The notes: generated by a model not told the origin, from the sequence alone. Positions 7,217 to 61,890 are shown, numbered from the stretch's first letter. The stretch: 64,000 nucleotides of DNA from Chloroflexota bacterium (GCA_013203045.1 JABMQN010000275.1:4515-68514); one strand, 5' to 3'. Numbers and translations: made by a program.

Positions 7217-7233
7217 CAGGAGGACAAACGAAA

Positions 7234-8442: not shown

Positions 8443-8655
8443 ATTGTTAAGTCCGTTCGTATTGAGTCCAGTCGAAGTACGAGCGGGTTAATGTTCACCC
8501 TTCGACAAGCTCAGGGCGAACGAATGAAAAGTGCAGGAATTTTCTTGCCGGGGGTTTGCGGGGGTGTCCCCCGCTCCTCTTCTTCCCCCAAGAGTGGGGG
8601 ACAGGGGGTTGGTCCGAACCGGGTAGAATATTGATAAAACAAAGGAGGCTTTAAA

Positions 8656-9414: not shown

Positions 9415-9524
9415 TAATTGCCACTAAGGCACGAAGACACGAAAAATATAGAAAGTCTTCTTAATTTTTAAAGCTTGGTGCCTTAGAGCCTTAGTGGCTG
9501 AATTTATAACTAAGGAGTTTGAAA

Positions 9525-10427: not shown

Positions 10428-10595
10428 ATACTGGAAGATCTTTCTGAAATTTATCAAACCTCCCTTCGGTAAACCGTGGGGAGTTTTTAAATTAGATGGT
10501 GTCATTCTGAAGGAGCAACGTGACTGAAGAATCTCCATTGCAGGAAAAGAGATTCTTCGCTACGCTCAGAATGACAATTCAACTCTGGTAACGAA

Positions 10596-11381
10596 ATGAC
10601 CGACCGACTCAAAAACAAAGTAGCCATTATAACCGGCTCCGGTTCCGAATACGGGATCGGGAGGGCGACTGCTCTGCTCTTTGCCAAAGAAGGGGCAAAA
10701 GTAGTGGTTGCCGATATCAACGAGGAAGCTTCCAGGGCGGTGGTCACGGAAATCAAAGATGCCAGGGGAACAGCCATTCAGATTCCTACAGACGTCACCG
10801 AAGTAAGTCAGGTAAAACGTATGGTCAAAGGTGCCATCCGATCATTCGGAACTATCGATATTCTGGTGAACACCGCGGCTAACTATCGTGATAAATCCAT
10901 CCTGAAGATGACCGAACAGGATTTCCACGAAATCATTGATGTTTGCCTCAATGGCGCCTTTTATTGTACCAAGTATGCCGTCGAATACATGATAGCTGCG
11001 GCCAGAAACGAGGCCAAAGAGGGTAATCCGGTTCCCTGCCGCAAGATTATTCACTTCACTTCGGGAGCCGGACTGCGGGGTAATCCGGGTCAGGCCAACT
11101 ACAGCGCAGCCAAAGCGGGAATCATTGGACTTGCCAAATCGAATGCCAAGGAATTCGCTCGATATAATATCACCGTCAATGCCATCTCTCCGTTCGCGTT
11201 GACCCCCCTAACAGACCTGATGCCGGATGATCTTAAAGAAACATTTGAGACCAAGGTCCCACTGGGACGCTGGGGTGACCCTGAAAAGGATATCACCCCT
11301 GTTGCTTTGTTCCTGGCTTCAGAGGATTCCAATTACATTACCGGACAGGTCATTATTGCCAGTGGTGGTTTGGATATTTAG
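10596..11381 (+). CDS. short-chain dehydrogenase/reductase
   Basis: ITGSGSEYGIGRATA, NTAA, and YSAAK motifs. 261 aa. Confidence 0.85.
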   Translation: MTDRLKNKVAIITGSGSEYGIGRATALLFAKEGAKVVVADINEEASRAVVTEIKDARGTAIQIPTDVTEVSQVKRMVKGAIRSFGTIDILVNTAANYRDKSILKMTEQDFHEIIDVCLNGAFYCTKYAVEYMIAAARNEAKEGNPVPCRKIIHFTSGAGLRGNPGQANYSAAKAGIIGLAKSNAKEFARYNITVNAISPFALTPLTDLMPDDLKETFETKVPLGRWGDPEKDITPVALFLASEDSNYITGQVIIASGGLDI

Positions 11382-11569
11382 GCGGTTGTGTTGGCCCTCC
11401 GCTTGCGTGTACTTCTTTTGTCCTGTATGCTTATATCAGTGGTTTAATAAAGGTTACCAGTTCCACAGGCACCCCCTGGACTTCCCCTTAAGGGCTTTTC
11501 AAGGCAAGGTTCTAAAAGATATTGGATGACCGGAATTGAGTTCACAATACTTGAAAAGGAGGTCATTCA

Positions 11570-11866
11570 ATGAGTTTCACTGATAGAGAACTGCAATGCG
11601 CCGATTGTGGAGCAACGTTCACCTTTAGTGCTAACGAGCAGGAGTTCTTTGCCGAGAAGGGTTTCACCAACGATCCCAAACGCTGTCCTGACTGTCGTTC
11701 AGCCAGAAAGATGGAACGTGGTGACAGGCGTGGTCCCAGGCAAATGTACCCGGCCGTATGCGCCGAATGTGGTATCGATACCGAAGTGCCGTTCCTGCCC
11801 AAACAAGACAGGCCGGTATATTGCAGCCAGTGCTATAATAGCGTTGGCTCTGCAAGCAGGCGATAG
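11570..11866 (+). CDS. zinc-ribbon domain protein (zf-trcl-like, two CxxC pairs x2)
   Basis: MSFTDRELQCADCGATFTFSANEQEFFAEKGFTNDPKRCPDCR ... CAECG...CSQCY is the characteristic probable-zinc-ribbon family. An AAGGAGG RBS sits upstream. Confidence 0.7.
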   Translation: MSFTDRELQCADCGATFTFSANEQEFFAEKGFTNDPKRCPDCRSARKMERGDRRGPRQMYPAVCAECGIDTEVPFLPKQDRPVYCSQCYNSVGSASRR

Positions 11867-11985
11867 CCTCAAACACAACAAAGTGATGAAAGAGAGGCCG
11901 GGGCCAGTTTCCGGTCTCTCTTTTATGATATCATTGATGCAGGAGTGAGAGCCTGTGGACAACAGATTCTTTTGAGGAGGTTATC

Positions 11986-12351
11986 ATCACCAATAAGATT
12001 TTTGTAGGAAATCTGAATTTCGAAACGATGCGAAGCGATATCGAAGGTCTTTTTGCTCAGTCTGGCGGTGTTATTGACGTATCAATCCCAACCGACCGGG
12101 ATACCGGTCGTCCAAGAGGATTCGCTTTTGTGGAATTTGTCGATGAACCATCTGCCATGAAAGCTATCGAAATGTTCGATGGGTATGATCTGCAGGGCAG
12201 GACGCTTCGAGTGAATCTGGCAGAAAAGCAACAGCAGCGCCCTCGTAGCTTTAGCGATTCCGGTCCATCTGGTGGGGGGTATCAAGGTTCGCGCGGTTCC
12301 AAACCAAAGGGCAGTCGCCGTAATATTCGTGCTCAAAAACGTGGGTATTGA
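11986..12351 (+). CDS. RNA-binding protein, RRM domain (RNP-2 IFVGNL, RNP-1 RGFAFVEF) with Gly/Arg-rich tail
   Basis: The first ATG (12028) lies downstream of the RNP-2 motif KIFVGNLNF, which is encoded in-frame at 11995..12021. A strong GAGGAGG at 11974..11980 points to a non-canonical start (ATC/ATT) near 11986; see findings. Confidence 0.7.
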   Translation: MTNKIFVGNLNFETMRSDIEGLFAQSGGVIDVSIPTDRDTGRPRGFAFVEFVDEPSAMKAIEMFDGYDLQGRTLRVNLAEKQQQRPRSFSDSGPSGGGYQGSRGSKPKGSRRNIRAQKRGY

Positions 12352-12391
12352 AGATTTGCTCAAATGAGATATCCCAGACGTCCCGATGTGA

Positions 12392-12425
12392 AAACAGGCT
12401 GACCGGAAGGTCGCCTGTTTTTTTG
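12392..12425 (+). terminator. rho-independent terminator after RRM gene
   Basis: ACAGGCtgaccggaaggtcGCCTGT followed by TTTTTTT. Confidence 0.75.
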
Positions 12426-12715
12426 TTAATCGGGTTTTTAAATTACTAGCGCTGTGCATCAAGTGACAGGCATACCGATTTACCATTACTCTGGCAATTA
12501 AATATTGTTAGAATAACGAGCTCTATCTTAATATTAATGACTCTCGCGAAGCCGCTAAGATCGCAAAGAAGTGAAAATACAAACTTTACGTTCATTGCGT
12601 CTTAGCGAGGAAATATGAACTCCAGCAGCAAAACGTGGAGGGGTGGGAGGACTGACAGCCGACAAATGATAGCTGACAGCACACTAGATGCCGGCACCGA
12701 TTTGCGAGTTACCGT

Positions 12716-12743
12716 TTTCGAACACCTTCCATCTTTGTTATAA
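12716..12743 (+). promoter_or_regulatory. sigma70-like promoter candidate for SDR gene at 12769
   Basis: TTCGAA - 16 nt - TATAAT. A GAAGGAGG RBS and the ATG at 12769 lie downstream. Confidence 0.45.
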
Positions 12744-12768
12744 TTTTCATGACTTGAAGGAGGTAATA

Positions 12769-13566
12769 ATGGGAACACTTGATGGGAAAGTAGCAGTGAT
12801 TACAGGTTCCGGCCGAGGTATCGGCAAAGAAACTGCCAGAATATTTGCCCGCGAGGGCGCCAGCGTGGTGATAAATGATGTGGATGAAGCTGTGGCTGCT
12901 GAAGCGGTTAAAGACCTTGAGGCCGAAGGCGGAACAGCGGCCTATTGCGTTGCCGATATACGCCAACTTGAAGAAGCCAAGAAACTGATGAAAACAGCCG
13001 TTGATGAGTTTGGCAAACTGGATATCCTGGTCAATAACGCCGGGATCGCCCGGGATACACTTGCCGGAAGGATGAGCGAGGAGCAATGGCAACTGGTCAT
13101 CGATATCAATCTGACAGGCACTTTCAACTGCATCCGGGCAGCATCCAAATATATGATGAAGAAAAGCCATGGCGGAAGAGTGATAAACATCTCTTCTGTA
13201 GTTGGTTTGGCAGGAAACATGGGACAGATCAATTATGCGGCCTCAAAAGCTGGCATTATCGGCATGACAAAAACTCTTGCCCGCGAATGGATGCGTTATG
13301 GCGTGACGGTCAACGCGGTCGCTTTCGGCGGTGTGGATACTCGATTCACCGCGGTAAAAGATGCTTCAGAAGAGGCTTTTGGCGAAAAGATCGGCATTCC
13401 GGAAAAGGCCCGTGAGGGGATGGTGGAACGGATGGAGACGCAGACCATTTTTGGCGGGATGACTACTCCAGAGCAGGCTGCTCAGTGTATCTACCTTTTA
13501 GCCCTTGATGAGGCTTCCTACATCACTGGTAACGTTTTGAATGCTACCGGTGGGTTGTACATGTAA
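12769..13566 (+). CDS. short-chain dehydrogenase/reductase
   Basis: MGTLDGKVAVITGSGRGIGKETA, NNAG, and YAASK motifs. A GGAGG RBS sits upstream; the track ORF started further upstream at 12688. Confidence 0.85.
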   Translation: MGTLDGKVAVITGSGRGIGKETARIFAREGASVVINDVDEAVAAEAVKDLEAEGGTAAYCVADIRQLEEAKKLMKTAVDEFGKLDILVNNAGIARDTLAGRMSEEQWQLVIDINLTGTFNCIRAASKYMMKKSHGGRVINISSVVGLAGNMGQINYAASKAGIIGMTKTLAREWMRYGVTVNAVAFGGVDTRFTAVKDASEEAFGEKIGIPEKAREGMVERMETQTIFGGMTTPEQAAQCIYLLALDEASYITGNVLNATGGLYM

Positions 13567-13567
13567 A

Positions 13568-13610
13568 ATAAAAGGGCGGGTTTTCAAACCCGCCCTTTAA
13601 CCTTCTTTTA
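13568..13610. terminator. bidirectional intrinsic terminator between convergent SDR (+) and GNAT (-) genes
   Basis: AAAGGGCGGGTTTtcaaAACCCGCCCTTT is a perfect 13-bp stem flanked by A/T runs on both sides. Confidence 0.7.
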
Positions 13611-14130
13611 GGGAAGCAACAGCTTCCATCTCAATAAACTCCTGCCCTTTCCTTACAATACGGCCACATGGAGTAAATCCACATCTTTCAAAGCATTCCT
13701 GCGCCCTGATATTCCATTCCAAAGTATGTAGAAATATCCTTTTCATCCCCATATCTTCAAAAATATGTTGCATCAGGGTCTTCACTGCGTCGGTGCCGTA
13801 TCCTTTTCCCCAGTATTCCCGATCGCCGATCAAAATGCCCATTTCTGCTTCTTTGCTCACCTTATCAAAGTTATAGCAAACACAATTGCCAATATGTTCA
13901 CCACTCAGCGTTTCAATGGCAAATTGCTTTTTGTCTAGATCACTTATTCCTTCATGATAGGCTACTAAGTATACAGAAAAAGGTATTTGGTAGGTTTCAG
14001 CAGCATCTAGACGTGTGAGCTCACGGTCAGTAGCCCAAGCATAATCGTTACTTGCATCCTCAAGTTGCTTTTCGCGCAGGATTACTTTCTGGCCATATAA
14101 CCGCTTGACTTGCCCTTCGTTCGTCATCAT
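13597..14130 (-). CDS. GNAT-family N-acetyltransferase (RimJ/RimL-like)
   Basis: 177 aa with an acetyl-CoA-binding region IGDREYWGKGYGTDAVKTL. Confidence 0.75.
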   Translation of the reverse strand: MMTNEGQVKRLYGQKVILREKQLEDASNDYAWATDRELTRLDAAETYQIPFSVYLVAYHEGISDLDKKQFAIETLSGEHIGNCVCYNFDKVSKEAEMGILIGDREYWGKGYGTDAVKTLMQHIFEDMGMKRIFLHTLEWNIRAQECFERCGFTPCGRIVRKGQEFIEMEAVASLKEG

Positions 14131-14412: not shown

Positions 14413-15051
14413 TCATAGGGACAATAGTTCATCCAGCTCAGCAATGGCGAGAGAGAGATCGTTTCCCACATGAACTGTTTGCATACCAAGCGAGCTTGCA
14501 GCTTCAATGTTGGCCGGGAAGTCATCGAGAAAAACGGTGCACTCTGGAGTCAATCCGCCCAAGCGTTCCAAAGTGATCCGGAATATCTTCGGATCAGGCT
14601 TTCGTATTCCCTCGTGGCTGGAATCTACCACCAAATCGAACAGGTCATCAACTGGCAAGAGTCCCCGCCAGCCATCAGAAAACTCCCTGATATTATTGGT
14701 AAGCAAGGCAGTAGGGTAACCTTTCTTCTTGAGGTCTGCCACCCGATCCACCAGTTCGTAGCGCAAGCCAGCATCGCGGGGCATCTTTTCGAAGAACTGA
14801 TAGATATCTACCTCCAGACCACAAATTTCATGACCTAGATGGAGGATTTCATCGCGCGCCTGCTCCAAAGTGATTTCACCACGCTCCAGGCAATGCCATG
14901 GATGGTCGCTGTCTTCCGCAGGGGGGCCAAACATAATTTCAACAATTTGTCCCGGTGCAGCGCCGAGTTCTGATCCTAGGTCTTCGCAAGAGGGCAACGG
15001 AGATGCGGTAAATACACCTCCGAAATCAAATATCACAGCATCGATTTTCAC
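14413..15051 (-). CDS. HAD-superfamily hydrolase (subfamily IA)
   Basis: Motif I KIDAVIFDFGGV and HAD motifs II-IV. I prefer a GTG start at 15051 (AAGGTG RBS, giving MKIDAVIFDFGGV) over the track start at 15117, because the latter would overlap the upstream gene by 53 nt. Confidence 0.7.
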   Translation of the reverse strand: MKIDAVIFDFGGVFTASPLPSCEDLGSELGAAPGQIVEIMFGPPAEDSDHPWHCLERGEITLEQARDEILHLGHEICGLEVDIYQFFEKMPRDAGLRYELVDRVADLKKKGYPTALLTNNIREFSDGWRGLLPVDDLFDLVVDSSHEGIRKPDPKIFRITLERLGGLTPECTVFLDDFPANIEAASSLGMQTVHVGNDLSLAIAELDELLSL

Positions 15052-15064
15052 ATTAGGCACCTTA

Positions 15065-16228
15065 TCAAATACGTCGTTTCGATTCCTCAAGGATCGGCAG
15101 GAAAACATTGCGTTCATTAGGCTTCATCTGAATCACATCATCCGGACAATGCAATGCACATAATCCACAGCCGCAGCACATTTCCGAGTTTATCACGGCA
15201 ATACCTTCCTCGCCAACTGCAATCGCGCTGACAGGACAGTACTCTTCGCATGTGCCGCATCCGGTGCAAGCATCCGGATCAACAATATTGGCAATATAAT
15301 ACGCTTTCAGCATAAATGGGATGATCCCTCGATTATAGTTACCAAAAGCTGCGCAGCAATCCCAGCAACAATTGCACAGGATATCAACATCATACTTGGC
15401 ATTGAAATCCTTGAGCGGCATGAGCCTGCCGACCTGGTGAATGCACCCTTTTTGCTGGTATTCCTTAATAAGCCGAATCGCCTCCTCTTTAGTAATACGG
15501 CGCGCAATGCCACGATTGATCAAGTGCTCTGCCGCAGGACCCAAAGCCATGCAGCTTTCATATGGGAGATGCTGCCTGCACGGGTCCCCATCCACCCTAC
15601 GATGTTCCCGGCAAAAGCAATGACTGAGAGTGATCACTTCGTCTTCGTCCAGCTTCTCAAAAATGTTAAGAATACTATGAGCCGGGTAGATCTCATTTAC
15701 GTCCGGGCGTACAGCCTCTTGAACAGGTATGATCTTGGAACCATCCGGATTCACCACGGCCAGGGAACGATGGGGGGCTACGTCCTGCATGACCTCGTTG
15801 ATGATCTCAGGGGGAATGGCCTTAGCCGCATTAAAGAAGGTAATGAGGCGTTTGCAAAATTCCTGTCTATCCGGCGTATTGGCTCCTCTCATTATATACA
15901 TTTCGAACCAGCCCGGGAAGATGGACATTAAATGGTAAATAGGCTCAGTATCACCCTCTGCCGGTGATGGCTGAGCGATATGGGTTTTATCCAGCAGGAT
16001 ATTGAATATACGATCGAACTCCTCTTTAGTAAGGCTAACTCGCTCTTCTATATCCGCACGTGTCCTGTTCCCGCCACCCATTTTGAGAAGGAAATCGACC
16101 TCCTCCGGTTCCAGCGCCGGATCGAAGACGTATAGCAGGTCATCCGTAACCATGGTAGGTGCTTCGGACTGTTCATTCATCAGGTTTGCCAGTTCCGCCA
16201 GCTTGTCCTTATTATTCTTGAATTCCAT
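15065..16228 (-). CDS. Cys-rich iron-sulfur protein with C-terminal 2x[4Fe-4S] ferredoxin domain (paralog of 21661..22632)
   Basis: CTGCGTCEEYCP and CCGCGLCALHCP are two CxxCxxCxxxCP motifs. An unusual cluster LCNCCWDCCAAFG is also present. The N-terminal ~250 aa are of unknown function. Confidence 0.6.
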   Translation of the reverse strand: MEFKNNKDKLAELANLMNEQSEAPTMVTDDLLYVFDPALEPEEVDFLLKMGGGNRTRADIEERVSLTKEEFDRIFNILLDKTHIAQPSPAEGDTEPIYHLMSIFPGWFEMYIMRGANTPDRQEFCKRLITFFNAAKAIPPEIINEVMQDVAPHRSLAVVNPDGSKIIPVQEAVRPDVNEIYPAHSILNIFEKLDEDEVITLSHCFCREHRRVDGDPCRQHLPYESCMALGPAAEHLINRGIARRITKEEAIRLIKEYQQKGCIHQVGRLMPLKDFNAKYDVDILCNCCWDCCAAFGNYNRGIIPFMLKAYYIANIVDPDACTGCGTCEEYCPVSAIAVGEEGIAVINSEMCCGCGLCALHCPDDVIQMKPNERNVFLPILEESKRRI

Positions 16229-16282
16229 TGCTCATTCCTCCGTTTTAGCCTTGTTTATTCCAGCGTGTAAACACGCCCTTTT

Positions 16283-16750
16283 CTACGTGATAGGTTCTAT
16301 GCTTACCCCACGCTCGACTGCTTTTTCCTGATATGAAGTGTACGTTTGAGTGACTTTTCCCCCCGTACTACCGGCAAGAAGATGGTTTGTTAAAATTGCC
16401 AGATCCCAGTATTCACGCCACACCGCAATCTTGCCATCACATATCACAAATGAATCCATCACTGGAACCATAACAGAACTGCCGTCTTTCAGGAAAGTCA
16501 GCTCTTCGCGTTCGAGTAATACAATGTCACCTTCCCCGACTATGTTGAGCAGCTTTCCTTCAAAATGATCGCACATATCTCGATAGGCATCAAGGATAGC
16601 ATAGATTTCATCTGGTCCCTGAACTGAAGGGCCTTTATCACATCGGTTCTCGTAAATTGCATCTTCTGTGAACCACTCCCGCGCCATGTCAGGAGTAAGG
16701 ATATACCACTCTAATGCGCAACGAGTGGTAAGGTCTTTGTTAGCCGACAT
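16283..16750 (-). CDS. NTF2-like / SnoaL-fold protein (limonene-epoxide-hydrolase-like size and fold)
   Basis: 155 aa with an alpha+beta cone-fold signature (EWYILTPDMAREWFTEDAIYEN...) and no other domains. Confidence 0.5.
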   Translation of the reverse strand: MSANKDLTTRCALEWYILTPDMAREWFTEDAIYENRCDKGPSVQGPDEIYAILDAYRDMCDHFEGKLLNIVGEGDIVLLEREELTFLKDGSSVMVPVMDSFVICDGKIAVWREYWDLAILTNHLLAGSTGGKVTQTYTSYQEKAVERGVSIEPIT

Positions 16751-16807: not shown

Positions 16808-18181
16808 TTATCCATCTAACTTTGCGATAACATCCTCGAGCAGATGGAGCACAGCGTGATCACCATCAATTTGAAGTTCGCCGCTCGTCCAGGCATGAAA
16901 CTGGTTCATCTCCCCTTTTCGAATCGCTGCCCAGATTTCAGCCGGCATGGTAACTGTAGTGGTGGGATTTGCAGCCATTCCCTCATGACGGCTCACGCTA
17001 CCGTTTTCACAAATCAGATACCAGTCAGTTGCCTCAGGTCCGGTAAGCCGATACTGAACCGTTGCCTCCAGATCCTCAATTCTGGTGATCTCTCTCCCCG
17101 CCGTGCCAGGAACCGGCAAGTTGAGTATTCTGGCGAGATACTGGGTGCAGAAATTATCTCTATCAGGATCATCGCCAGGCAGTGAAACACCTATCTGCTT
17201 CAGGTTCCGCTGAACCTTGACCACATGCAAACCCATAACACACGCTGCCCGGACCTCATTGTAGAAATAATGTTTTACTTTCCTGCCGGTTAACTCTTCG
17301 TATCGCTGAATGGTCTCTTCTTTGCTCGGGAAGCCATCTAGCCTCGGGACACCGATACCCTCACCTAATAGATAATCAGTAGTAATGAGAAACGCCAAAT
17401 CTGATTCGGGGTCTCCGATGTGAGAGATATCCCAGTCCAGCAATCCTAACAAGTCTCCTGCCGGGCTAAAGATCGAATTGGGAAACCGGGCATCGCCCCA
17501 GCACAACGAGACATGTTCAGGCTCATACCGATTCTCTTTGAGCCAGGCCAGCGCTGCTTCAAGGATTGGGTGTGTTTCGTCTGGAGTATCTTTAGTCCAA
17601 TCGAGGAATTTCTCCCAGCGGTCAAGGTCCTGATCTACCGGACCGGTGCCATGGGGGGGAATCGTAAGGAAAGAGAAGTCCATACTCTTCCAGTCCAACG
17701 TATGCAAACGGGCCATGCCTTCGATGAGTTGCCACCACATCTTTTCCCGTAATTCGGGACTGGCGTCATAGCAAATCCCAAAAGAGTGATAAGGCGGGAA
17801 TTCGGAGGGCACAGTGCCATCTAGTTTGTTCATTAGGTAAAACGGTGTGCCGAAAATGCTTGTATCGCTTTCAAACCAGTAAACCCTGGGCGCCGGAACA
17901 TTCGTATTTCCCAGCTGTTCCAGTATGCGGAATTGCATCTCGACCTTAGGTTCCGGATAGATGGGATAGACCGTGCCTTCACATCTTAGAATCATCCCAG
18001 CGGACTTGTGTTCCCCGCCTTCATCCCATGACAGGTCGAAGAGGAAACTTTCGTTGGTAAAGCCTGCCCCTGATCGTTCTAAATCCGAAATCGCGAAATT
18101 CGAGGCTTGGGGCATCTTCTTTCGAAGCCAGCCCAGAAGTTTCGATTGCATGTCCAGCAGGTCAACGTCACGGGACATCAT
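16808..18181 (-). CDS. APH-like phosphotransferase (ACAD10/11-kinase-like) fused to C-terminal SCP2 sterol/lipid-binding domain
   Basis: Brenner-like catalytic segment LCWGDARFPNSIF and the metal-binding motif LLDWDISHIGDPESD. The C-terminal ~100 aa (TGPEATDWYLICENG...MNQFHAWTSGELQIDGDHAVLHLLE) is SCP2-like. Confidence 0.7.
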   Translation of the reverse strand: MMSRDVDLLDMQSKLLGWLRKKMPQASNFAISDLERSGAGFTNESFLFDLSWDEGGEHKSAGMILRCEGTVYPIYPEPKVEMQFRILEQLGNTNVPAPRVYWFESDTSIFGTPFYLMNKLDGTVPSEFPPYHSFGICYDASPELREKMWWQLIEGMARLHTLDWKSMDFSFLTIPPHGTGPVDQDLDRWEKFLDWTKDTPDETHPILEAALAWLKENRYEPEHVSLCWGDARFPNSIFSPAGDLLGLLDWDISHIGDPESDLAFLITTDYLLGEGIGVPRLDGFPSKEETIQRYEELTGRKVKHYFYNEVRAACVMGLHVVKVQRNLKQIGVSLPGDDPDRDNFCTQYLARILNLPVPGTAGREITRIEDLEATVQYRLTGPEATDWYLICENGSVSRHEGMAANPTTTVTMPAEIWAAIRKGEMNQFHAWTSGELQIDGDHAVLHLLEDVIAKLDG

Positions 18182-18192
18182 GTCGCACCTCT

Positions 18193-18251
18193 TTTTCGTA
18201 GCGCGACCCTTCAGGATCGCTTTTTGGCGGGGCTAAAGCCTCGCGCTACAT
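18193..18251. repeat. palindromic extragenic repeat copy A (TIR TTCGTAGCGCGA ... TCGCGCTACAT)
   Basis: Its 11-bp terminal inverted repeats and the core CCTTCAGGATCGCTT match the longer copy at 32068..32189. Confidence 0.55.
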
Positions 18252-18259
18252 GTTAATGA

Positions 18260-20224
18260 TTATGCCAGGAGACTTCTTGTTTCTAGGTCATCAGCGATAT
18301 CACCAAGGTTAAGTCCTTCCATCTGTGCCTTCGTTTGCAGACCAGTGGCCACGTCCCATCGCCGCAGTTCGTAGTACTCATCTTTCATTTTCTCGAACTT
18401 CTCTCGATCGATAACCTCACCCTTTCGAGAGACCACTTCCCAATTCTTTCCGGGAACCTGGCAGTGAGGATTCGAAATATCATAATTCAACGGCACATTG
18501 TAACATTGATCAGAAAGGATATCGAAGTCTCTCCCTCGGTGACCTTCCCTGACAAGAATTGCCCTTTGCAGATTAAATATTCTCTCCCCAACTTTGTATA
18601 GCCCTACCTCATCTATCTCATTACCCGTGACTGCGGAAAGAAGCTTGCTTTCCAGCGTGGGATCGCCAACGTGGTCCTCAGTGTTGGGCAGATCAGTCAG
18701 AGGCCATATATAGTCGCATAGAATAAGCGATTCTTTCACATATTGCCGATCCTGGATCATTTTTGCTGCCAATGCTTTGCCTTCGTAAGTCGAGAAATCT
18801 GCGGCGATCTCACTTCCCCAGAACCTTTTGGCAATCGCACGGAGCACATCAGTGGTGACGTGGCCCAAACCCATTGTAGCTGAGACTGTCCAGAGAGGAA
18901 GAAGCAATCCTACTTCATGGATTTGCTGGATAGGAATCCGCGGTTCCATGGCATATGGGAACGCATTCGTTATGTAGAGTCGCGGTCCATATATGTCAGT
19001 GCCGGGCTCATCCAGATAGCCAGCCAGTTCGAGCTCTCTGATCGCATCAGGGCCAACTGCTTCTGCAGCTTTCTCGATCCCTTGAGCAAGTATATCCCCA
19101 AAGCCTTCTCTGAAGGCGATCTTGCGTATCAGAGTCTCGATGTACTCCTGACTTCCCAGCTTTGAGAGCGGGATGCCGGTGCTTGCATCGGTGAGGATAC
19201 CAGCTTTATAACAACGCTCAAGCCAGTTGATTAATAAATCAACAGCCACAGCATCGAGCCCGAGATCATCACAAAGCTTATTGGCAATAAACGGGACGTC
19301 ATTCCAGTCTTCGTAATACTCGTCGGTGTGCGGCTGATAGAAAAAGGCGGAGTGGCACACGAATTTCCCCTTCTTGCCATCCTGAGCCACGTACACTTTT
19401 CGAGGACACCTGCCAATACATCCGTAGCATGGCTCTTTTTTCATATCCTGGTTGGGGACAACCTTGAAATCCGCAATGATATCCCTTGACCATCTGCCCA
19501 GGTATTCGGTGAAACCCCTTTCCAGGGCTTTGTAATACTGAGTCAGTTCTTTCAGCCTTTCCGGACTGGCTACATTCGATCCCTTCTTGGTACCTTTCAC
19601 TACAACTGCTTTGAGATTCTTTGAACCCATTACAGCACCCAATCCACCAGTACAGACAGCATCATTATCCGCGGTCAGGATAGCCGCTACACACATGTTC
19701 TCGCCAGCGGGGCCAATCGCCACTACTCGTGCAGAGTCCCCCAGCTCATCTTTAAGAATTTGCCTGGTTTCGATGGCACCTTTTCCCAAAAGACTGGAAG
19801 CACCTTTCAGTTCTGCGGATTCTTCATCGAAGCGGATATAGACTGGCTTTTCGGACTTCCCATGGATCACTATGGCATCGTAGCCAGCAAACTTCATTTC
19901 GGCTCCGAACCGACCTCCCAGGTTGCCATAGGAGAACGATTCCGGAATTGGCTCGGGAGATTTTCCACAGATGGTCCACCGTGAACCACCGATCACTGGG
20001 ATTCCGCAAAGTGGCCCAGTGGCAAATATAAGTCTGTTTTCGGCATCAAAGGCGCCGATTTCCGGGGGAACCTCGTCCCAGTAGATTTTGGCTGCGATTC
20101 CCCTCCCCCCCAGGAATCTGTCTGCATAGTCTGCGGTGGAGGTCTCGGTTATTTTTCCCGAAGTTAGATCGATCCGAAGGATCTTTCCTGCATATCCGAA
20201 TGATGTCATTTCTCTGCCTTTCAT
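18260..20224 (-). CDS. aor: tungsten-containing aldehyde:ferredoxin oxidoreductase (AOR family)
   Basis: FGYAGKILRIDLTSGKI N-terminus plus the pterin- and [4Fe-4S]-binding regions typical of AOR. ~650 aa. The real start is probably MTSFGYAGK at 20209. Confidence 0.85.
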   Translation of the reverse strand: MKGREMTSFGYAGKILRIDLTSGKITETSTADYADRFLGGRGIAAKIYWDEVPPEIGAFDAENRLIFATGPLCGIPVIGGSRWTICGKSPEPIPESFSYGNLGGRFGAEMKFAGYDAIVIHGKSEKPVYIRFDEESAELKGASSLLGKGAIETRQILKDELGDSARVVAIGPAGENMCVAAILTADNDAVCTGGLGAVMGSKNLKAVVVKGTKKGSNVASPERLKELTQYYKALERGFTEYLGRWSRDIIADFKVVPNQDMKKEPCYGCIGRCPRKVYVAQDGKKGKFVCHSAFFYQPHTDEYYEDWNDVPFIANKLCDDLGLDAVAVDLLINWLERCYKAGILTDASTGIPLSKLGSQEYIETLIRKIAFREGFGDILAQGIEKAAEAVGPDAIRELELAGYLDEPGTDIYGPRLYITNAFPYAMEPRIPIQQIHEVGLLLPLWTVSATMGLGHVTTDVLRAIAKRFWGSEIAADFSTYEGKALAAKMIQDRQYVKESLILCDYIWPLTDLPNTEDHVGDPTLESKLLSAVTGNEIDEVGLYKVGERIFNLQRAILVREGHRGRDFDILSDQCYNVPLNYDISNPHCQVPGKNWEVVSRKGEVIDREKFEKMKDEYYELRRWDVATGLQTKAQMEGLNLGDIADDLETRSLLA

Positions 20225-20255
20225 ACAGCCTGTAAAAAACTGAAATTATATTTGA

Positions 20256-21626
20256 CTATGACTGGGTGAACTCTGCGATTACGTCTTCAAGGAGCGAGAG
20301 TAGTCCCAGATCACCTTCAGTCACCAGTCTACCCGTTGTCCATGCGTCTATCTGGTTCAGTTCCCCAGCACGAATTGCCTTCCAATCCTCGAGTGAGGCT
20401 TTGATGGTACAATTCGGATTCTCAATAATGCCCTCGTGTCGAGTTCCCTTGCCTTTGTCTGAAATCAAATACCAGTCACTTCCACCGGGTCCGGTGAAGC
20501 GAAACTGGACACTGACAGTCACTTCGTTGATGTCCGTAATAACTTCTTTCTTCTCACCCGGAGGCGGCAACTGCAAAAGGTCAGCCAGATGCTGGGTAGA
20601 GAAGTTATTGAAAAGCAAGTCGTCTTCGATTGGCATGCCTTGTGAGCGGAACCTCTTCAGAGCAGAAATCACGGTCAAACCATATCGAAAGGTGGCCATG
20701 ACTTCGTTGTAGAAGAGGTTCTTGACCTTCCACCCGGTGAGTTCCTCGTATCTGCGGACAATCTCCTCATCCTCCGGTGTTCCGGGCAAACGCGGTAGCC
20801 CGTAACCTTTGCTGTGTTGTTTATCCAGAGTGAAGAACCAGGCCAGGTCAAATTCCGGGTCCCCAATGAAGACCATCTCCCAGTCCATAATGGCCAGCAC
20901 GTCTCTCTCTGGAATACTATAGAGCGTATTTCCAATGCGGGCATCTCCCCAGCACAGACAGATGCGCTCCGGTACATAGCGGTTTTCCTTAAGCCATTCC
21001 AGAGTGGCTTCCATGGTCGGGTGCGATTCCTGAGGATCATCTTTCACCCAGTCGTTTAAGTAGCTGTCCCAGTAGATTAGCTGTTGATCGATAGGATCGG
21101 TGCCCCCACCTGGTATTTTGAGGAAGTCGATACCCATGTTTCTCCAGTCCAGTTTGTGGATCTCGGTTATCGCTTCAAGACATCCCCACCACATTTTGGC
21201 ACGTTTTTCAGGTGTGGCTTCAAAATACATCCCAGATCCGTGATACGAAGGATAATCCTGGGGAACATCCCCTTCCAGTTTCTCCATAAGGAAGAACGGA
21301 ACCCCAATAATAGCAGGGTCTTCTTCCAGCCAGAGCATTTTGGCCACCGGCACTTTCGTGGGATATAAAATCTTCATAGTTCGGAACTGGAGACCGAGAT
21401 CATATTCAGGGAAACTCCCCTGGCCCCATGGTGCGGCCCGGAGAACTACGCCCATTGATTTTTTCTCGCCGGATTCCTCCCATTCCATATCAAACAGATA
21501 GGTTTCGCTGGAGAGGCCCATGCCGGGTTTGTTTAAATCACTAATCGATATTTTGTCAGCCTGGGGCATCTTCTTTTGAACCCAGGCAGTGAGCTTAGCT
21601 TGAATTTCGGAAAGGTCCGGCTCCAT
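20256..21626 (-). CDS. APH-like phosphotransferase fused to C-terminal SCP2 domain (paralog of 16808..18181)
   Basis: Same architecture as 16808..18181: CLCWGDARIGNTLYS, IMDWEMVFIGDPEFD, and a C-terminal SCP2-like FRFTGPGGSDWYLISDKG...AWTTGRLVTEGD. Confidence 0.7.
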   Translation of the reverse strand: MEPDLSEIQAKLTAWVQKKMPQADKISISDLNKPGMGLSSETYLFDMEWEESGEKKSMGVVLRAAPWGQGSFPEYDLGLQFRTMKILYPTKVPVAKMLWLEEDPAIIGVPFFLMEKLEGDVPQDYPSYHGSGMYFEATPEKRAKMWWGCLEAITEIHKLDWRNMGIDFLKIPGGGTDPIDQQLIYWDSYLNDWVKDDPQESHPTMEATLEWLKENRYVPERICLCWGDARIGNTLYSIPERDVLAIMDWEMVFIGDPEFDLAWFFTLDKQHSKGYGLPRLPGTPEDEEIVRRYEELTGWKVKNLFYNEVMATFRYGLTVISALKRFRSQGMPIEDDLLFNNFSTQHLADLLQLPPPGEKKEVITDINEVTVSVQFRFTGPGGSDWYLISDKGKGTRHEGIIENPNCTIKASLEDWKAIRAGELNQIDAWTTGRLVTEGDLGLLSLLEDVIAEFTQS

Positions 21627-21660: not shown

Positions 21661-22632
21661 TTAGGCGGGTTTTAGCGCGCTCTTGATTTCATCTAAATCC
21701 AGCGGTTCGCCCTTGGAAGGATCAAGACGAAGACTGATTGCTCCATCAGGACATACGCCTTCACAACCACCGCATCCCATACATTTTTCAAGATCGATGA
21801 CAGGTTGCTGCTTTTCTTCATCCATTTTCATACAATCGAAGTTGCATGAATCCACACACGTACCACATCCTGTGCATACATCAGTATCTACTTCGGCAAC
21901 ATATCCAGATGGAACCAGGAAGCATAGATCCCCCATTGCCTTGGCCATCGGGATTCCGCCCATCAGATTCCACATCTTCACACCCATGCAGCAGCAACTG
22001 CAACAATTGCAGATAGCGAAAAACCGACTACCAATTTCCCTCTTGAAATAAGCACAATGGACTTCGCCGCGCTTATGAGACTCCTCCAATACCTGAACTG
22101 CCTCTTCCGGCGTAATCTTGCGGAACTTTGGATTCAGGTCCGCAATGAACTGGGCAGCCGGGTCCCCCACCATCAGGCACACTTCCATTGGGTAGGGCAA
22201 GCATGGATTATCCGAATTCAACCGGCATCCGCACGGGCCAATTGCAAGAGACTGTGGATTCTGCAGGATAACATCTCTGGCGATTTTCCAGGGAACCACT
22301 TGTTCCGGCAAGGGCATATTAAGATCTTCTTTCTGTGATACCAATTTGACCGCATCGAGGAATTTCACTACTTTCGTATGGTATATATCCGTTTCCGGAC
22401 CTCCTTGAGCCCCCTCTGCAATCTCCTTGACATAGGCCTCCAGCATCTCCGCGATTCCTTCTTCCAGTGGACCCAAATCCTCATGGACGATTTCTTTGTA
22501 AGGCAAATCAATATCCCTGCAGGCGATGGATGCGAATCGATTGATGTACTTCAGATACATGTACCCGCCAAAGAAATCATTCCGATTTTCCGGACCAAAC
22601 ATGTTGAAAAATTCTTCCGTCGAATTATGCAT
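21661..22632 (-). CDS. Cys-rich iron-sulfur protein with C-terminal 2x[4Fe-4S] ferredoxin domain (paralog of 15065..16228)
   Basis: CTGCGTCVDSC and CMGCGGCEGVCP are the ferredoxin motifs. A cluster ICNCCSCCCMGVK matches LCNCCWDCC in the paralog. Confidence 0.6.
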   Translation of the reverse strand: MHNSTEEFFNMFGPENRNDFFGGYMYLKYINRFASIACRDIDLPYKEIVHEDLGPLEEGIAEMLEAYVKEIAEGAQGGPETDIYHTKVVKFLDAVKLVSQKEDLNMPLPEQVVPWKIARDVILQNPQSLAIGPCGCRLNSDNPCLPYPMEVCLMVGDPAAQFIADLNPKFRKITPEEAVQVLEESHKRGEVHCAYFKREIGSRFFAICNCCSCCCMGVKMWNLMGGIPMAKAMGDLCFLVPSGYVAEVDTDVCTGCGTCVDSCNFDCMKMDEEKQQPVIDLEKCMGCGGCEGVCPDGAISLRLDPSKGEPLDLDEIKSALKPA

Positions 22633-23869: not shown

Positions 23870-24673
23870 CTATTCCAAACCCATGAGCCTCGTTATTCCA
23901 AAGCGATGGCCAACAGTGAATCCGCCATCGACCATCAGTGCATGCCCGGTTATGAATGAAGCTTCATCCGATGCCAGGAAAAGGACTGCGTTGGCGATCT
24001 CCTCTGGGCGTCCAATCCTTCCTAGTAGAATAGCTTCGATGATGTGGTCGCGGAAGTCCTTGAGGATTTCGTTATCCAGCACCGTTTCTGAAGCCAATGG
24101 CGTATCAACAAATCCGGGACAAATCGTATTCACCCGAATGCCTTTACGAGCATAGTCCATGGCCATGTTCCGGGTGAGCAGGATGACGCCACCCTTGGAG
24201 ACATTGTACGCACTCCCCCCCTCAGAACCTTCAATCCCCTCGATACTCGAGATATTTACAATGCTGCCGGAGCCCTGCTCGACCATCTGTCCGACTGCGT
24301 ATTTACACACGAGGAAAGTTCCCTTGAGATTGATGTCCATCACGCGATCCCATTCTTCCGTGGGAAGCATATGTACCGGTCCGCCACTTGCTATACCCGC
24401 GCAGTTCACAACGATATCAAGACGACCAAACCGTTTCACAGTTCCTTCTATAACACTTCGGATGCGTTCCTCATCTCGGACGTCGCCGATTTCAAAATAG
24501 GATTCCGGGGCAATTTCGACGGCCTTTTTCCAAGTGTCATTCGTAGTCTCGCCGATATCGAAGCCCACAACCCATGCCCCCTCCTGAACAAATCGCAATG
24601 CACATGCAGCTCCTATCCCTGAAGCAGCACCTGTTATGAATGCCACCTTGTCTTTCAATCGAGTCATGTTCAA
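23870..24673 (-). CDS. short-chain dehydrogenase/reductase
   Basis: ITGAASGIGAACA, NCAG, and YNVSK motifs. Confidence 0.85.
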   Translation of the reverse strand: MNMTRLKDKVAFITGAASGIGAACALRFVQEGAWVVGFDIGETTNDTWKKAVEIAPESYFEIGDVRDEERIRSVIEGTVKRFGRLDIVVNCAGIASGGPVHMLPTEEWDRVMDINLKGTFLVCKYAVGQMVEQGSGSIVNISSIEGIEGSEGGSAYNVSKGGVILLTRNMAMDYARKGIRVNTICPGFVDTPLASETVLDNEILKDFRDHIIEAILLGRIGRPEEIANAVLFLASDEASFITGHALMVDGGFTVGHRFGITRLMGLE

Positions 24674-24691: not shown

Positions 24692-25114
24692 TTATTCTGA
24701 ACGGACCAGTCGAGAGCCGAAAGCGACTGTCTCTGCATATGCCGTATCAGGGAATTCGAATACCTCAACAACCTTCTCATCCTTAAAACGGAAAAAGAAT
24801 ACATATAAATTATTGTAGTCATTTCCCGTTTTTGTCTTTGCTTCCCCTCGTGCCCGAACTACGACTGTATTTCCTTCAGCGATCAGTTCTTCCGGATGTA
24901 CCATTATATACTCAAGCTGTTCGAAGAAGCTGAGCCACATATTCATGATTTGTTCTTTGCCATGAAACGTACCAGATACCGGCATATCACCCGGTACTAC
25001 ATATTGAACATCATCGGCAAATATTTCAAGTAAATCCGGGTCCGAAGCATTAAGCTTTTCAAAGTACCGGATGATTGCTTCTTTGTACTGATTTTTCATT
25101 GCTTGGCTTTTCAA
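24692..25114 (-). CDS. NTF2-like / SnoaL-like (ketosteroid-isomerase-like) protein
   Basis: 140-aa cone fold, comparable in size and pattern to SnoaL/KSI-like proteins. Confidence 0.5.
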   Translation of the reverse strand: MKSQAMKNQYKEAIIRYFEKLNASDPDLLEIFADDVQYVVPGDMPVSGTFHGKEQIMNMWLSFFEQLEYIMVHPEELIAEGNTVVVRARGEAKTKTGNDYNNLYVFFFRFKDEKVVEVFEFPDTAYAETVAFGSRLVRSE

Positions 25115-25153: not shown

Positions 25154-25666
25154 CTATTGCCCAAGGGCTTCCAGCAATGCTCCTCTATTCTTGGCCCAAC
25201 CTTCATTATAGGGGCTAATGTAGTTCCATTTCGTCTTTATCGAATCGAATTTCCACCTGCCATCTTCCCTTACATACTCCTCGAAGTATGTTCCCATCAT
25301 CCATTGAGCTACACCCGTTGAAGTATCGGTGGTCGGAGCTTCATAATACCAGCGACCTGTCGCTCTATCACCATCCACTTCGATGATCGGATTATGTACC
25401 ATATGAATGCAGAAGGAAACCGCTCCCGGGACAACTTCCCCGAAGAATACTTTCAATCCTTCGGGGCCCTCAAAATGAGATCCCTCGCCAAGACCGAAGT
25501 CTACTTTGGCACCTTTAGTGAAGTGGGAAATCAGTTCATCTCGATTCTTGGGATCATCCAAGCCTGCATCGCACAAATAGCAATATGTAGCCTTGAGCTT
25601 CTTAATTTCTTCGATATCCTCCAGCACCTTGATCCGTGCTTCCAAATCTTCCAGGGTCATATACAA
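25154..25666 (-). CDS. NTF2-like protein (SnoaL_4 / DUF4440-like)
   Basis: 170 aa. The N-terminus MTLEDLEARIKVLEDIEEIKKLKATYCY is typical of SnoaL_4. Confidence 0.5.
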   Translation of the reverse strand: MYMTLEDLEARIKVLEDIEEIKKLKATYCYLCDAGLDDPKNRDELISHFTKGAKVDFGLGEGSHFEGPEGLKVFFGEVVPGAVSFCIHMVHNPIIEVDGDRATGRWYYEAPTTDTSTGVAQWMMGTYFEEYVREDGRWKFDSIKTKWNYISPYNEGWAKNRGALLEALGQ

Positions 25667-25804: not shown

Positions 25805-26752
25805 TTATTCGATGGAAAGCAGGTAGGTTCTGAGGTTGACCTTCTTGTTCGATATGCCAAGTTTCGTTCTGATGTTATATCGGTGAGTATCAACAGTCCT
25901 TGAAGATATGCCCAACTGGCTGGCAATTTCCTTCGCAGATTTACCCTGCTTAATAAGATTTGCTACCGTAATTTCCGTGGGAGTAAGCTTCAAGAACTTC
26001 ATGGAAGCACCATGTGGAAATGATAACGCAATTTCATGTAAGTTGGTCTCTAATTCGTCCAGGTAGGCGTGCTGAACTTGGTTCAAACTGGCCTTTTTCA
26101 ACTTCTCTAGATAAGGCAAAACGAATTCTTTCATGTTAGAAAGCACCTTATCTTCCAACTCCGTTTTCACCTCTTCCGACTTTTCCAGCATAACTCGCAG
26201 GGCAATATTCGCGTCTTCAAGGCTGGAAGTGCTCTCGCTTACCAATCTTTCCAGATCATCTTTATGCCTGCGCAGTAATTCCTGTTCCCGTTTGCGAGCA
26301 GTAATATCTCGAGTAATCGCGAGAATACCTTTGATTTCACCATTGCCACTAACCAACCGAGGGTTTACCTCAATAAAGACTTTAGTCCCGTTTTTATGCT
26401 TCGCCTGCAATTCCAATACCTGAGTCTCAGCGGTCTTTCCTTCAAGCAGTTCTTTGCTCAACTCAATGCAACGTTGCCAGTCCTCTGCACTCAAGGCGCC
26501 AAATTCGAAGAATTTCTTTCCTACAACCTCTTCTCGTTTATAGCCAAAGAGATCCTCCACCTTATCATTGACATCGATGACTGTTCCATCGGTACTGATA
26601 TAAACAATGTGGTCATTAGCATTTTCGAAGATTGTCTTGAATTTCTCCTCACTGTCTCGAAGTTGTCGGTTAGCCTCGATAAGCAGTGCATTCTGTTCCC
26701 GCGAACGTATCAACTGCTTTCTTGTTTCGTCATTGGTTAGCATGGTTCTCAC
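25805..26752 (-). CDS. PAS-domain LuxR-family transcriptional regulator
   Basis: PAS core EEKFKTIFENANDHIVYISTDGTVIDVN...ITARK. LuxR HTH LTPTEITVANLIKQGKSAKEIASQLGISSRTVDTHRYNIRTKLG. Confidence 0.75.
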   Translation of the reverse strand: MRTMLTNDETRKQLIRSREQNALLIEANRQLRDSEEKFKTIFENANDHIVYISTDGTVIDVNDKVEDLFGYKREEVVGKKFFEFGALSAEDWQRCIELSKELLEGKTAETQVLELQAKHKNGTKVFIEVNPRLVSGNGEIKGILAITRDITARKREQELLRRHKDDLERLVSESTSSLEDANIALRVMLEKSEEVKTELEDKVLSNMKEFVLPYLEKLKKASLNQVQHAYLDELETNLHEIALSFPHGASMKFLKLTPTEITVANLIKQGKSAKEIASQLGISSRTVDTHRYNIRTKLGISNKKVNLRTYLLSIE

Positions 26753-38906: not shown

Positions 38907-38918
38907 AGGAGTGATGCC

Positions 38919-40172: not shown

Positions 40173-40187
40173 ATAGAGGAGTAAGAA

Positions 40188-61737: not shown

Positions 61738-61890
61738 ACCATTCTGGTTATCTTGATCTCTTCTTTTGGAAATCAACCAAAAGATACCTTATAAGCAAAG
61801 GTTGATCGATTGTCTGTTCTCTAGTGTACCACACTCAAACCCAAACAGGGAGGATTCTCTGAGGACAGGAGAATAGAGGCGAATACGACC

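Follow-up and report, generated by a model that had tools for sequence, protein, structure and literature searches.

The window analysed here is a stretch of 64,000 nucleotides (nt) from a Chloroflexota bacterium (GCA_013203045.1, JABMQN010000275.1:4515-68514), and its segment from 16,808 to 21,626 forms the core of this account. Two open reading frames (ORFs) lie there on the minus strand, exactly where a first-pass annotation of the sequence had placed them. Their products, K1 and K2, are proteins of 457 and 456 residues that join an APH-type (aminoglycoside phosphotransferase-type) kinase to a C-terminal SCP2 domain, and they flank a gene of the aldehyde:ferredoxin oxidoreductase (AOR) family. 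All three genes belong to a longer co-directional string (Table 1), in which gaps are mostly 18-78 nt; the regulator at its head is set off by 138 nt. The string also encodes a homolog of 25-PSL and Rv3169, outside the segment covered by the first-pass annotation. Only one ATP-dependent alcohol dehydratase of this type, consisting of a kinase and a lyase, has been characterised, and each of its two halves has a homolog in the window.

Table 1. Genes and domains of the kinase-SCP2 gene string and of the neighbouring block (window coordinates).
Feature	Position (nt)	Strand	Supporting matches and remarks
Whole gene string	26752 down to 14413	-	12 co-directional genes
PAS-LuxR regulator	25805-26752	-	Head of string; Pfam PAS_9 + GerE
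SnoaL_4 (NTF2-like) protein	25154-25666	-	Pfam SnoaL_4, 101 bits
SnoaL_2 (NTF2-like, ketosteroid-isomerase-type fold) protein	24692-25114	-	Pfam SnoaL_2, 69.9 bits
Short-chain dehydrogenase/reductase (SDR)	23870-24673	-	Pfam adh_short_C2, 245 bits
25-PSL/Rv3169-family homolog, 391 residues	22665-23840	-	Two genes upstream of K2
Fd323, Cys-rich, C-terminal 2x[4Fe-4S] ferredoxin domain	21661-22632	-	Pfam Fer4 families, residues 246-302
K2, kinase-SCP2 fusion, 456 residues	20256-21626	-	Pfam APH + SCP2
K2, kinase part	20577-21626	-	
K2, SCP2 part	20280-20555	-	Residues 358-449
AOR-family W/Mo-pterin [4Fe-4S] protein, 654 residues	18260-20224	-	Pfam AFOR_N + AFOR_C
K1, kinase-SCP2 fusion, 457 residues	16808-18181	-	Pfam APH + SCP2
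K1, kinase part	17117-18181	-	Residues ~1-355
K1, SCP2 part	16829-17083	-	Residues 367-451
SnoaL/limonene-epoxide-hydrolase (LEH)-like protein	16283-16750	-	Pfam SnoaL_2, 38.5 bits; LEH, 37.4 bits
Fd387, second Cys-rich 2x[4Fe-4S] ferredoxin-like protein	15065-16228	-	
HAD phosphatase, soluble-epoxide-hydrolase N-terminal type	14413-15117	-	NCBIfam TIGR02247, 135.7 bits (cut-off 125.4)
Neighbouring block	5765-13566	+	483-residue KAS-III/HMG-CoA-synthase-like protein + DUF35 (ChsH2-type OB/zinc ribbon), SCP-x-type thiolase, four SDRs

Both halves of each fusion protein exceed their Pfam gathering thresholds. The APH family (PF01636, threshold 23.2 bits) scores 83 bits in K1 and 63.4 bits in K2, and SCP2 (PF02036, threshold 21.3 bits) scores 42.6 and 39.8 bits. 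Among solved structures, the SCP2 halves further match the SCP2-like proteins 3cnu, at E 4e-6, and 3bn8, at E 6e-5. An AlphaFold model of K1 is predicted with confidence (mean local confidence score, pLDDT, 88.9; global score, pTM, 0.85), and its SCP2 half consists of a beta-sheet of at least four strands together with helices. The sheet (residues 371-420) reaches pLDDT 88-90 and the C-terminal helices 67-78. The first-pass assignment of the C-terminal region to SCP2 is borne out by the Pfam scores, the matches to solved proteins and the K1 model. The catalytic GD..N and DW(D/E) motifs that it reported are intact as well. K1 carries CWGD230ARFPN235 and LLD249WD, whereas K2 carries CWGDARIGN and IMDWE. 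Across an alignment of 32 family members, K2 included, residues D230, N235, D249, W250 and R66 are invariant, and the family motif takes the form CWGD230ARxxN235 followed by D249-W-(D/E). K1 and K2 share 48% identity over 451 residues (E 2e-159) and are indeed a paralog pair on either side of the AOR-family gene. The fusion is widespread: a cut-off of E <= 1e-10 yields at least 393 database clusters, of which the 120 best all combine APH and SCP2. Named homologs of the window genes are labelled Chloroflexota (Dehalococcoidia-type), protein sequence identical to that of the window is found on metagenome contigs, and the APH-SCP2 proteins constitute a large, entirely uncharacterised family of uncultured Chloroflexota.

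The closest solved relative of K1 by sequence is the protein of PDB entries 9fsg, 9ft5 and 9fu5 (E 2.9e-35), which is also the top match by fold (Foldseek TM-score 0.79-0.85). Foldseek describes 9fsg and 9ft5 as a kinase of 25-hydroxy steroids (25-HSK) with bound 25-hydroxy- or 25-phospho-cholestadienone, and the N-terminus of 9fsg, MSDTPDL, equals the translated forward primer published for the 25-HSK gene of Sterolibacterium denitrificans (PMC8449060). We identify 9fsg as 25-HSK because of this primer match in the first place and the Foldseek description in the second. Next follows Rv3168 of M. tuberculosis (3ats, E 4e-29), which Foldseek also finds to be structurally close, while ACAD11 is a far weaker match (8v3v, E 8e-13). 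Like K1 and K2, 25-HSK (SDENChol_21286) has the APH-type fold and a corresponding catalytic loop, CWGDARPGN...LDWE. Arg66 of K1 stands where classical APHs have the strand beta-3 Lys that binds the ATP phosphates; 25-HSK (FVGRL) and Rv3168 (LVARV) have Arg at the same position. Sequence and fold together support the membership of K1 and K2 in the 25-HSK/Rv3168 branch of the APH fold.

Membership in the Pfam APH family invites a different reading, in which K1 and K2 serve detoxification or resistance by phosphorylating an antibiotic or xenobiotic such as an aminoglycoside, a macrolide or a hydrophobic toxin. The same was once proposed for Rv3168, the structurally close relative that appears in reviews' lists of putative aminoglycoside kinases (PMC3691515). 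However, curated NCBIfam resistance models score just 20-21 bits against cut-offs of 205 for APH(3') and 650 for MphF, and antibiotic kinases superpose on the K1 model with TM-scores of at most 0.67. A kinase fused to SCP2, with a lyase partner and with redox and NTF2-like genes in the same operon, fits a pathway of lipid catabolism or transformation and not a one-step resistance function. A resistance function is thus extremely unlikely.

In S. denitrificans, 25-HSK attaches phosphate to the tertiary alcohol at C25 in the side chain of cholesterol, and a separate lyase eliminates the phosphate to leave a delta-24 alkene (PMC7411048, PMC8449060, PMC11061730). Kinase and lyase together dehydrate the 25-hydroxysteroid at a cost of one ATP (PMC7411048, PMC8449060). 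The kinase acts on a water-insoluble steroid alcohol ahead of phosphate elimination, and its assays required cyclodextrin (PMC8449060). As the nearest characterised relative of K1 and K2 is a steroid side-chain kinase, the earlier suggestion of a bulky lipid as phospho-acceptor gains support. The SCP2 domain, putatively lipid-binding, may hold the water-insoluble substrate or hand it over.

The second half of such a dehydratase has its counterpart in the 391-residue protein of the string. It passes the NCBIfam Rv3169 family model with 298 bits (threshold 150), and a profile built from 30 homologs matches 25-PSL (PDB 9fzn, 9g2i and 9g4c) over the full length at E 8e-55; the single sequence reaches E 3e-34. 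Pfam returns nothing for the protein even at E 1, and its relatives show weak matches to DUF7064 and DUF7065. The motifs GTSxR, YPN, VRASR and RDRSWGVR are common to the protein and 25-PSL, and the invariant polar motifs of the alignment of lyase homologs recur in 25-PSL. Invariant positions of that alignment include D6, H11, R25, R74, R174, D175 and H218. Full-length homology and a shared, all-beta fold place the protein with 25-PSL. On these similarities, it is probably the partner that eliminates the phosphate which K1 and K2 would introduce.

Gene linkage was assessed in 99 related loci (L numbers below), which were fetched and searched with the window proteins. They include 17 fusion loci and 78 non-fusion loci; the latter hold mostly distant kinases among the contig-search matches listed and serve as a control set only. 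Fifteen of the 17 fusion loci carry a lyase homolog in the flanking sequence fetched, the other two being incomplete contigs, and so do three of four further loci, the fourth contig again being incomplete. Kinase and lyase are therefore neighbours in every SCP2-fusion locus with enough flank. The lyase gene lies directly upstream of the kinase gene in most fusion loci, and in L001, L002, L088 and L089, as in the window, other cluster genes stand between them. The pairing extends beyond the fusions, as 17 of the 78 non-fusion loci listed have a lyase homolog near the kinase. In Actinomycetota, Nocardia and Gordonia among them, it lies directly upstream, and in Myxococcota and Alphaproteobacteria it is no more than ~2 kb away. 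In five Actinomycetota loci (L011, L014, L017, L019 and L021), the kinase-lyase pair sits at about 8820-11050 in each. Rv3168 and Rv3169 likewise share one operon (PMC5340868), as kinase and lyase homolog do in the window and in the Nocardia and Gordonia loci. Unlike the window, this operon is controlled by a TetR repressor and has no SCP2 domain, AOR-family gene or NTF2-like genes.

Other partners are confined more closely to the fusions. Twelve of the 17 fusion loci have an AOR-family gene, against none of the 78 non-fusion loci listed; once duplicates are removed and later loci added, the figure for Chloroflexota loci is ~11 of 15. Ten of the 17 fusion loci fetched have a SnoaL_4 gene at most 8 kb from the kinase gene, and in several loci, for example L005, L007, L008, L094 and L096, it directly adjoins the AOR gene. 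Gene orders include SnoaL_4-AOR-lyase-kinase, lyase-AOR-kinase, kinase-AOR, and ferredoxin-lyase-kinase-SnoaL_4 with the AOR gene on the opposite strand. Neighbours that stay together while their order changes are what functional linkage should produce, as opposed to mere common inheritance.

Given the kinase-lyase linkage in fusion loci and in Actinomycetota, ATP-dependent dehydration, in which an alcohol is converted to a phosphoester and then to an alkene, is the most likely function of the pair. Since a lyase homolog accompanies the kinase in all assessable loci, the phosphate is most likely a leaving group for elimination and not an end product. We consider it probable, though well short of certain, that kinase and lyase form an ATP-dependent dehydratase acting on a hydrophobic alcohol. 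K1 and K2 would then be cytoplasmic lipid-alcohol kinases whose SCP2 domain binds the water-insoluble alcohol. Either kinase would move the gamma-phosphate of ATP onto a steroid- or isoprenoid-like lipid, at a hydroxyl that is unactivated and probably tertiary, and the lyase homolog would expel the phosphate to form a C=C bond. Further changes to the same carbon skeleton may be made by the SDR, by the NTF2-like proteins and, together with its ferredoxin-like partners, by the AOR-family enzyme. A lipid theme is suggested by the SCP2 domain, the BaiE-like SnoaL_4 protein and the HAD phosphatase of the lipid-phosphate-phosphatase type; the narrower assignment of a steroid- or isoprenoid-type substrate is a tentative one.

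A related strategy operates in ACAD10, ACAD11 and LvaA-type systems, in which an APH-fold kinase phosphorylates a hydroxyl and the phosphate is eliminated to yield an alkene. There, elimination is carried out by an acyl-CoA dehydrogenase domain and on CoA esters, and the kinases are much more distant homologs of K1 and K2 (E 1e-13). By analogy, K1 and K2 could be hydroxyacyl-CoA kinases whose SCP2 domain binds acyl-CoA, so that a 4-hydroxyacyl-CoA would become an enoyl-CoA and enter fatty-acid or side-chain beta-oxidation with the products of the block at 5765-13566. ACAD11 kinase domains are detectable relatives, SCP2 domains bind acyl-CoAs besides sterols, close relatives keep the thiolase, DUF35 and SDR genes in synteny, and the HAD phosphatase recalls the ACAD10 architecture. 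Nonetheless, 25-HSK and Rv3168 are far closer by sequence than ACAD11, and an acyl-CoA dehydrogenase domain is absent from K1, K2, the operon and the other window ORFs scanned; the conserved partner is a lyase of all-beta fold instead. The thiolase/DUF35 synteny is moreover confined to close genomes and absent from distant fusion loci. This scheme is very unlikely, and dehydration of a lipid alcohol by the kinase-lyase pair is retained as the preferred reading.

What the AOR-family protein contributes is less readily assigned. Its N- and C-terminal domains pass Pfam AFOR_N (219 bits) and AFOR_C (173 bits), but the nearest NCBIfam AOR equivalog gives 319 bits where 868 are needed. The [4Fe-4S] motif CxxCxxxC...C (C266, C269, C273 and C503) is conserved in orthologs, and so is the pterin motif LCDDLGLD, of the DxxGLD type. 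Outside the N-terminal domain, alignment to AOR, FOR or BamB yields just 20-40 bits. All intact orthologs carry Cys290 (codon 19355-19357) in the motif GKFxC(H/G)(S/A)A. In a profile alignment, this residue falls exactly on the Cys of MMKCF in BamB, which by residue count is Cys322, the tungsten ligand. The family consensus flc (F288-V289-C290 in the window protein) aligns with Y-E-A of AOR entry 9mqx, and Cys290-His291 lie on or beside the position of the EYE motif, whose Glu (Glu313 in P. furiosus AOR) is catalytic in canonical AORs.

In L007 (4820-6859) and L093 (3780-5735), orthologs that come from different samples, an in-frame TGA takes the place of the Cys290 codon. Past it, the frame stays open to the normal C-terminus, and gene callers split each gene in two. 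Alternation of Cys and Sec at the same site usually marks a residue that is redox-active or ligates a metal. Judged from the reading frames, the TGA probably encodes selenocysteine, giving a Sec/Cys pair in an AOR-family enzyme; marine Chloroflexi are known to have selenoproteins (PMC5736913). L007 and L093 have a hairpin 3' of the TGA, but its stability does not exceed that of shuffled sequence (z -0.9) and it also occurs in L092, which encodes Cys; it neither proves nor excludes a selenocysteine insertion sequence (SECIS) element. The alignments and the Cys/TGA codons make a good, though not conclusive, case for BamB-like metal coordination and for chemistry other than plain aldehyde oxidation. 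BamB itself, the W subunit of class II benzoyl-CoA reductase (PDB 4z3w), resembles the window protein in its AOR-family fold, its size (653 versus 654 residues) and the CxxCxxxC + C cluster motif. Their catalytic domains, however, are barely alignable (20-28 bits), and the partner genes differ, being those of the benzoyl-CoA pathway for BamB and kinase and lyase genes here. No BamDEFGHI-type bifurcation genes and no HdrA-like or NuoF-like genes occur among the window ORFs scanned; the redox partners next to the AOR-family gene are Cys-rich, ferredoxin-like proteins only.

The first-pass annotation suggested two sequential or alternative phosphorylations that are linked to aldehyde oxidation. 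In a fuller form of this scheme, a classical aldehyde:ferredoxin oxidoreductase would process the phosphorylated lipid or an aldehyde derived from it, and phosphate would be an end point or tag instead of a leaving group. Most characterised AOR-family members do oxidise aldehydes; the kinase, SCP2 and AOR-family domains are all there and tightly packed, and the AOR linkage is kept in Chloroflexota. In S. denitrificans, aldehyde oxidation comes two steps after dehydration (PMC7411048), which makes a downstream role in aldehyde oxidation conceivable. Yet this scheme leaves the conserved 25-PSL homolog beside the kinases unexplained, and the lyase accounts for the phosphate better. Most related loci have one kinase, the AOR catalytic domain is highly diverged from AOR and FOR, Cys or Sec stands at the BamB ligand position in place of the EYE motif, and no allylic hydroxylase that could make an aldehyde is present among the window ORFs scanned. 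The coupling of phosphorylation to aldehyde oxidation is not upheld, and the scheme as a whole is quite unlikely.

For the AOR-family enzyme of the proposed dehydratase pathway, a redox step on the unsaturated product is envisaged, with a leaning to C=C reduction; dehydration and reduction together would amount to net reductive dehydroxylation. The Bai bile-acid pathway offers an analogy for such an outcome. No single reaction can be put forward more than tentatively: reduction is the first choice, chemistry of another kind stands second, and aldehyde oxidation is doubtful. A role as water-dependent hydroxylase would be thermodynamically awkward with a ferredoxin acceptor. In its most complete form, the proposal would have strictly anaerobic Chloroflexota remove unactivated hydroxyls from sterol, hopanoid or isoprenoid lipids without O2. 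The SCP2-fused kinase and the lyase, along with a BaiE-like dehydratase, would carry out the ATP-driven dehydration, and the new double bond would be reduced by a hitherto unrecognised AOR-family enzyme whose tungsten has a Cys or Sec ligand and whose electrons come from ferredoxin. Taken as a whole, this chain of steps is unlikely.

Several observations weigh against the dehydratase reading and its redox extension. Identities to the characterised enzymes amount to just 26% (K1) and 32% (K2) for 25-HSK and 28% for 25-PSL, and the substrate may differ widely, for example as a secondary alcohol or a non-steroid. With 379 residues, 25-HSK is a single-domain protein without SCP2, and its gene in S. 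denitrificans does not adjoin the lyase gene (PMC8449060), unlike the arrangement in the window. The activity of 25-PSL rests on PDB titles and earlier extract work. Among the window ORFs scanned, there is no Mo hydroxylase, be it tertiary-alcohol-making or allylic-methyl-oxidising, and no hydroxylase of the Mo-bis(pyranopterin guanine dinucleotide) (Mo-bisPGD) type, so a full pathway cannot be reconstructed. The equivalence of Cys290 to a metal ligand derives from sequence alignment, and the fusion loci L003, L009 and L091 have no AOR gene within 8-10 kb.

From the 25-HSK/25-PSL dehydratase, the window system differs in its SCP2 fusion, its operonic organisation with kinases, lyase homolog and AOR-family gene in one unit, the attached AOR-family, BaiE-like and ferredoxin-like genes, and its host lineage, which is Chloroflexota instead of a denitrifying betaproteobacterium. 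Literature searches on the ATP-dependent dehydration of an unactivated alcohol via a phosphoester found only S. denitrificans papers, and in the library searched no paper was found on 25-PSL or on the window gene cluster.

The presence of two kinases around the AOR gene can be traced through related loci. The order K2-AOR-K1 recurs in the contigs L088 and L089, whose proteins are 86-94% identical to those of the window and whose gene order is the same except for the LEH-Fd387-HAD block. In L002, the order is SnoaL_4-SnoaL_2-SDR-lyase-AOR-kinase with a K1-type kinase, and neither a K2 nor a ferredoxin gene is present. From these layouts, the window appears as a lyase-AOR-kinase operon with two inserted modules, Fd323-K2 and LEH-Fd387-HAD. 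Hence, the bracketing of the AOR gene looks like a consequence of module insertion, and its symmetry seems to have no special meaning.

A recent tandem duplication of K1 and K2 was considered and rejected, because their mutual identity of 48% compares with ~55% between each of them and many single-copy family members. K1 and K2 are old paralogs. A rough neighbour-joining tree of the kinase domain places K1 within a 20-member clade that includes the kinases of L001, L002 and L090, whereas K2 and its L088 ortholog form a basal branch among the Chloroflexota fusions sampled. Close K2 orthologs occur only in L088 and L089; a metagenome search with K2 found no close ortholog and returned four loci at 44-57% identity. 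With one kinase in most related loci, the sequential phosphorylations of the earlier proposal are unlikely as a general rule, while its alternative, separate substrates for the two old paralogs, is plausible. Most likely, K1 and K2 differ in alcohol specificity and widen the range fed to a single lyase. Other doublings are found in the family, namely two lyases with one kinase (L003 and L009) and two AORs with one kinase (L090).

The accessory genes of the string add detail to this picture. The best solved relative of the SnoaL_4 protein is the bile-acid 7-alpha-dehydratase BaiE (PDB 4l8o, E 3e-12). SnoaL_2 orthologs are found in L002 and L088, and L002, L088 and L092 have SDR orthologs of 70-90% identity. 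Fd323 and Fd387 are paralogous (32% over 190 residues); in each, the 2x[4Fe-4S] domain follows a stretch rich in Cys (CxCR..., CNCCxxCC) for which Pfam has no matching family. Fd323-like genes stand beside AOR and kinase genes in L088, L094 and L098, and Fd323 is likely the electron carrier of the AOR-family enzyme. The LEH-like, Fd387 and HAD genes (14413-16750) are absent from the otherwise collinear L088 and L089, between K1 and the gene of a GNAT-family protein, which marks them as a lineage-specific insertion. A HAD gene also flanks the L002 cluster. The phosphatase, a member of the lipid-phosphate phosphatase family, may rescue off-pathway phosphoesters; a dead-end phosphoester problem was flagged for 26-phosphosteroids by the authors of the 25-HSK study (PMC8449060). 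The LEH-like gene lies two genes from this phosphatase of the soluble-epoxide-hydrolase N-terminal type, an arrangement that echoes the two activities of soluble epoxide hydrolase.

On the opposite strand, the block at 5765-13566 could encode side-chain beta-oxidation or an archaeal-type thiolase/HMGCS/DUF35 complex. Its thiolase, DUF35 and SDR genes were considered as a further part of the pathway and rejected, since synteny is found only in close relatives (L001, L088 and L090) and is absent from distant fusion loci.

If the proposed dehydration holds, hundreds of genes now labelled 'phosphotransferase' or 'hypothetical' acquire a testable function. The linkage in Actinomycetota suggests that Rv3168, a 'putative aminoglycoside phosphotransferase', is half of an ATP-dependent lipid-alcohol dehydratase. 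In sediments, the cluster suggests a route by which strict anaerobes may attack sterol-like lipids. It also brings to attention a clade of AOR-family W/Mo enzymes with a Cys or selenocysteine active-site residue. Should dehydroxylation indeed be joined to reduction, the pathway would provide an electron sink and a candidate biological source of sterenes and stanols from sterols in anoxic sediments.

Gene content varies further among the related loci. Clusters of the K1 type in L001 (922-6150) and L090 (3-3836) contain genes for a ~694-residue Mo/W-bisPGD oxidoreductase, a 373-residue DUF1214-like protein and a sulfotransferase. The L001 cluster additionally has an APS kinase, and the AOR-family genes of L090 are in tandem. 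These extra genes possibly represent added hydroxylation or sulfation steps of the same pathway. In one subclade (L005:168-3581, L007:1170-3605 and L093:1-1827), two genes for FAD-dependent oxidoreductases of 557 and 569 residues, with Thi4, FAD_binding_2 and Amino_oxidase-type matches, run divergently from a SnoaL_4-AOR-lyase-kinase cluster. Ketosteroid dehydrogenases and phytoene-desaturase-like enzymes are of similar size. Among the distant APH-type kinases, five Actinomycetota loci (L045, L047, L052, L053 and L069, mostly Solirubrobacterales) have a HAD phosphatase gene directly downstream of the kinase gene at ~10850-11600, an order that recalls the HAD-APH part of ACAD10.

A scan for promoters and terminators gave no enrichment over shuffled sequence inside the operon. 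The sole strong terminator-like hairpin lies at 13571-13598; it is a perfect, GC-rich 12-bp stem with T-runs on both strands, consistent with bidirectional use, and it separates a convergent SDR gene (12688-13566, plus strand) from the GNAT gene (13597-14130, minus strand). A promoter-like site with 11 of 12 matching positions at 14167-14138 on the minus strand suggests that the GNAT gene is a transcription unit of its own. Elsewhere in the window, the plus strand encodes CheR and CheB, followed by a hybrid histidine kinase of 1659 residues (Cache-HAMP-PAS-GAF, three matches to receiver domains) and two further hybrid kinases (32417-41798), as well as an 847-residue ORF with no Pfam match (52594-55137). 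The minus strand encodes a B12-binding-domain protein (318-1040) and a B12-binding radical SAM protein (60139-61776).

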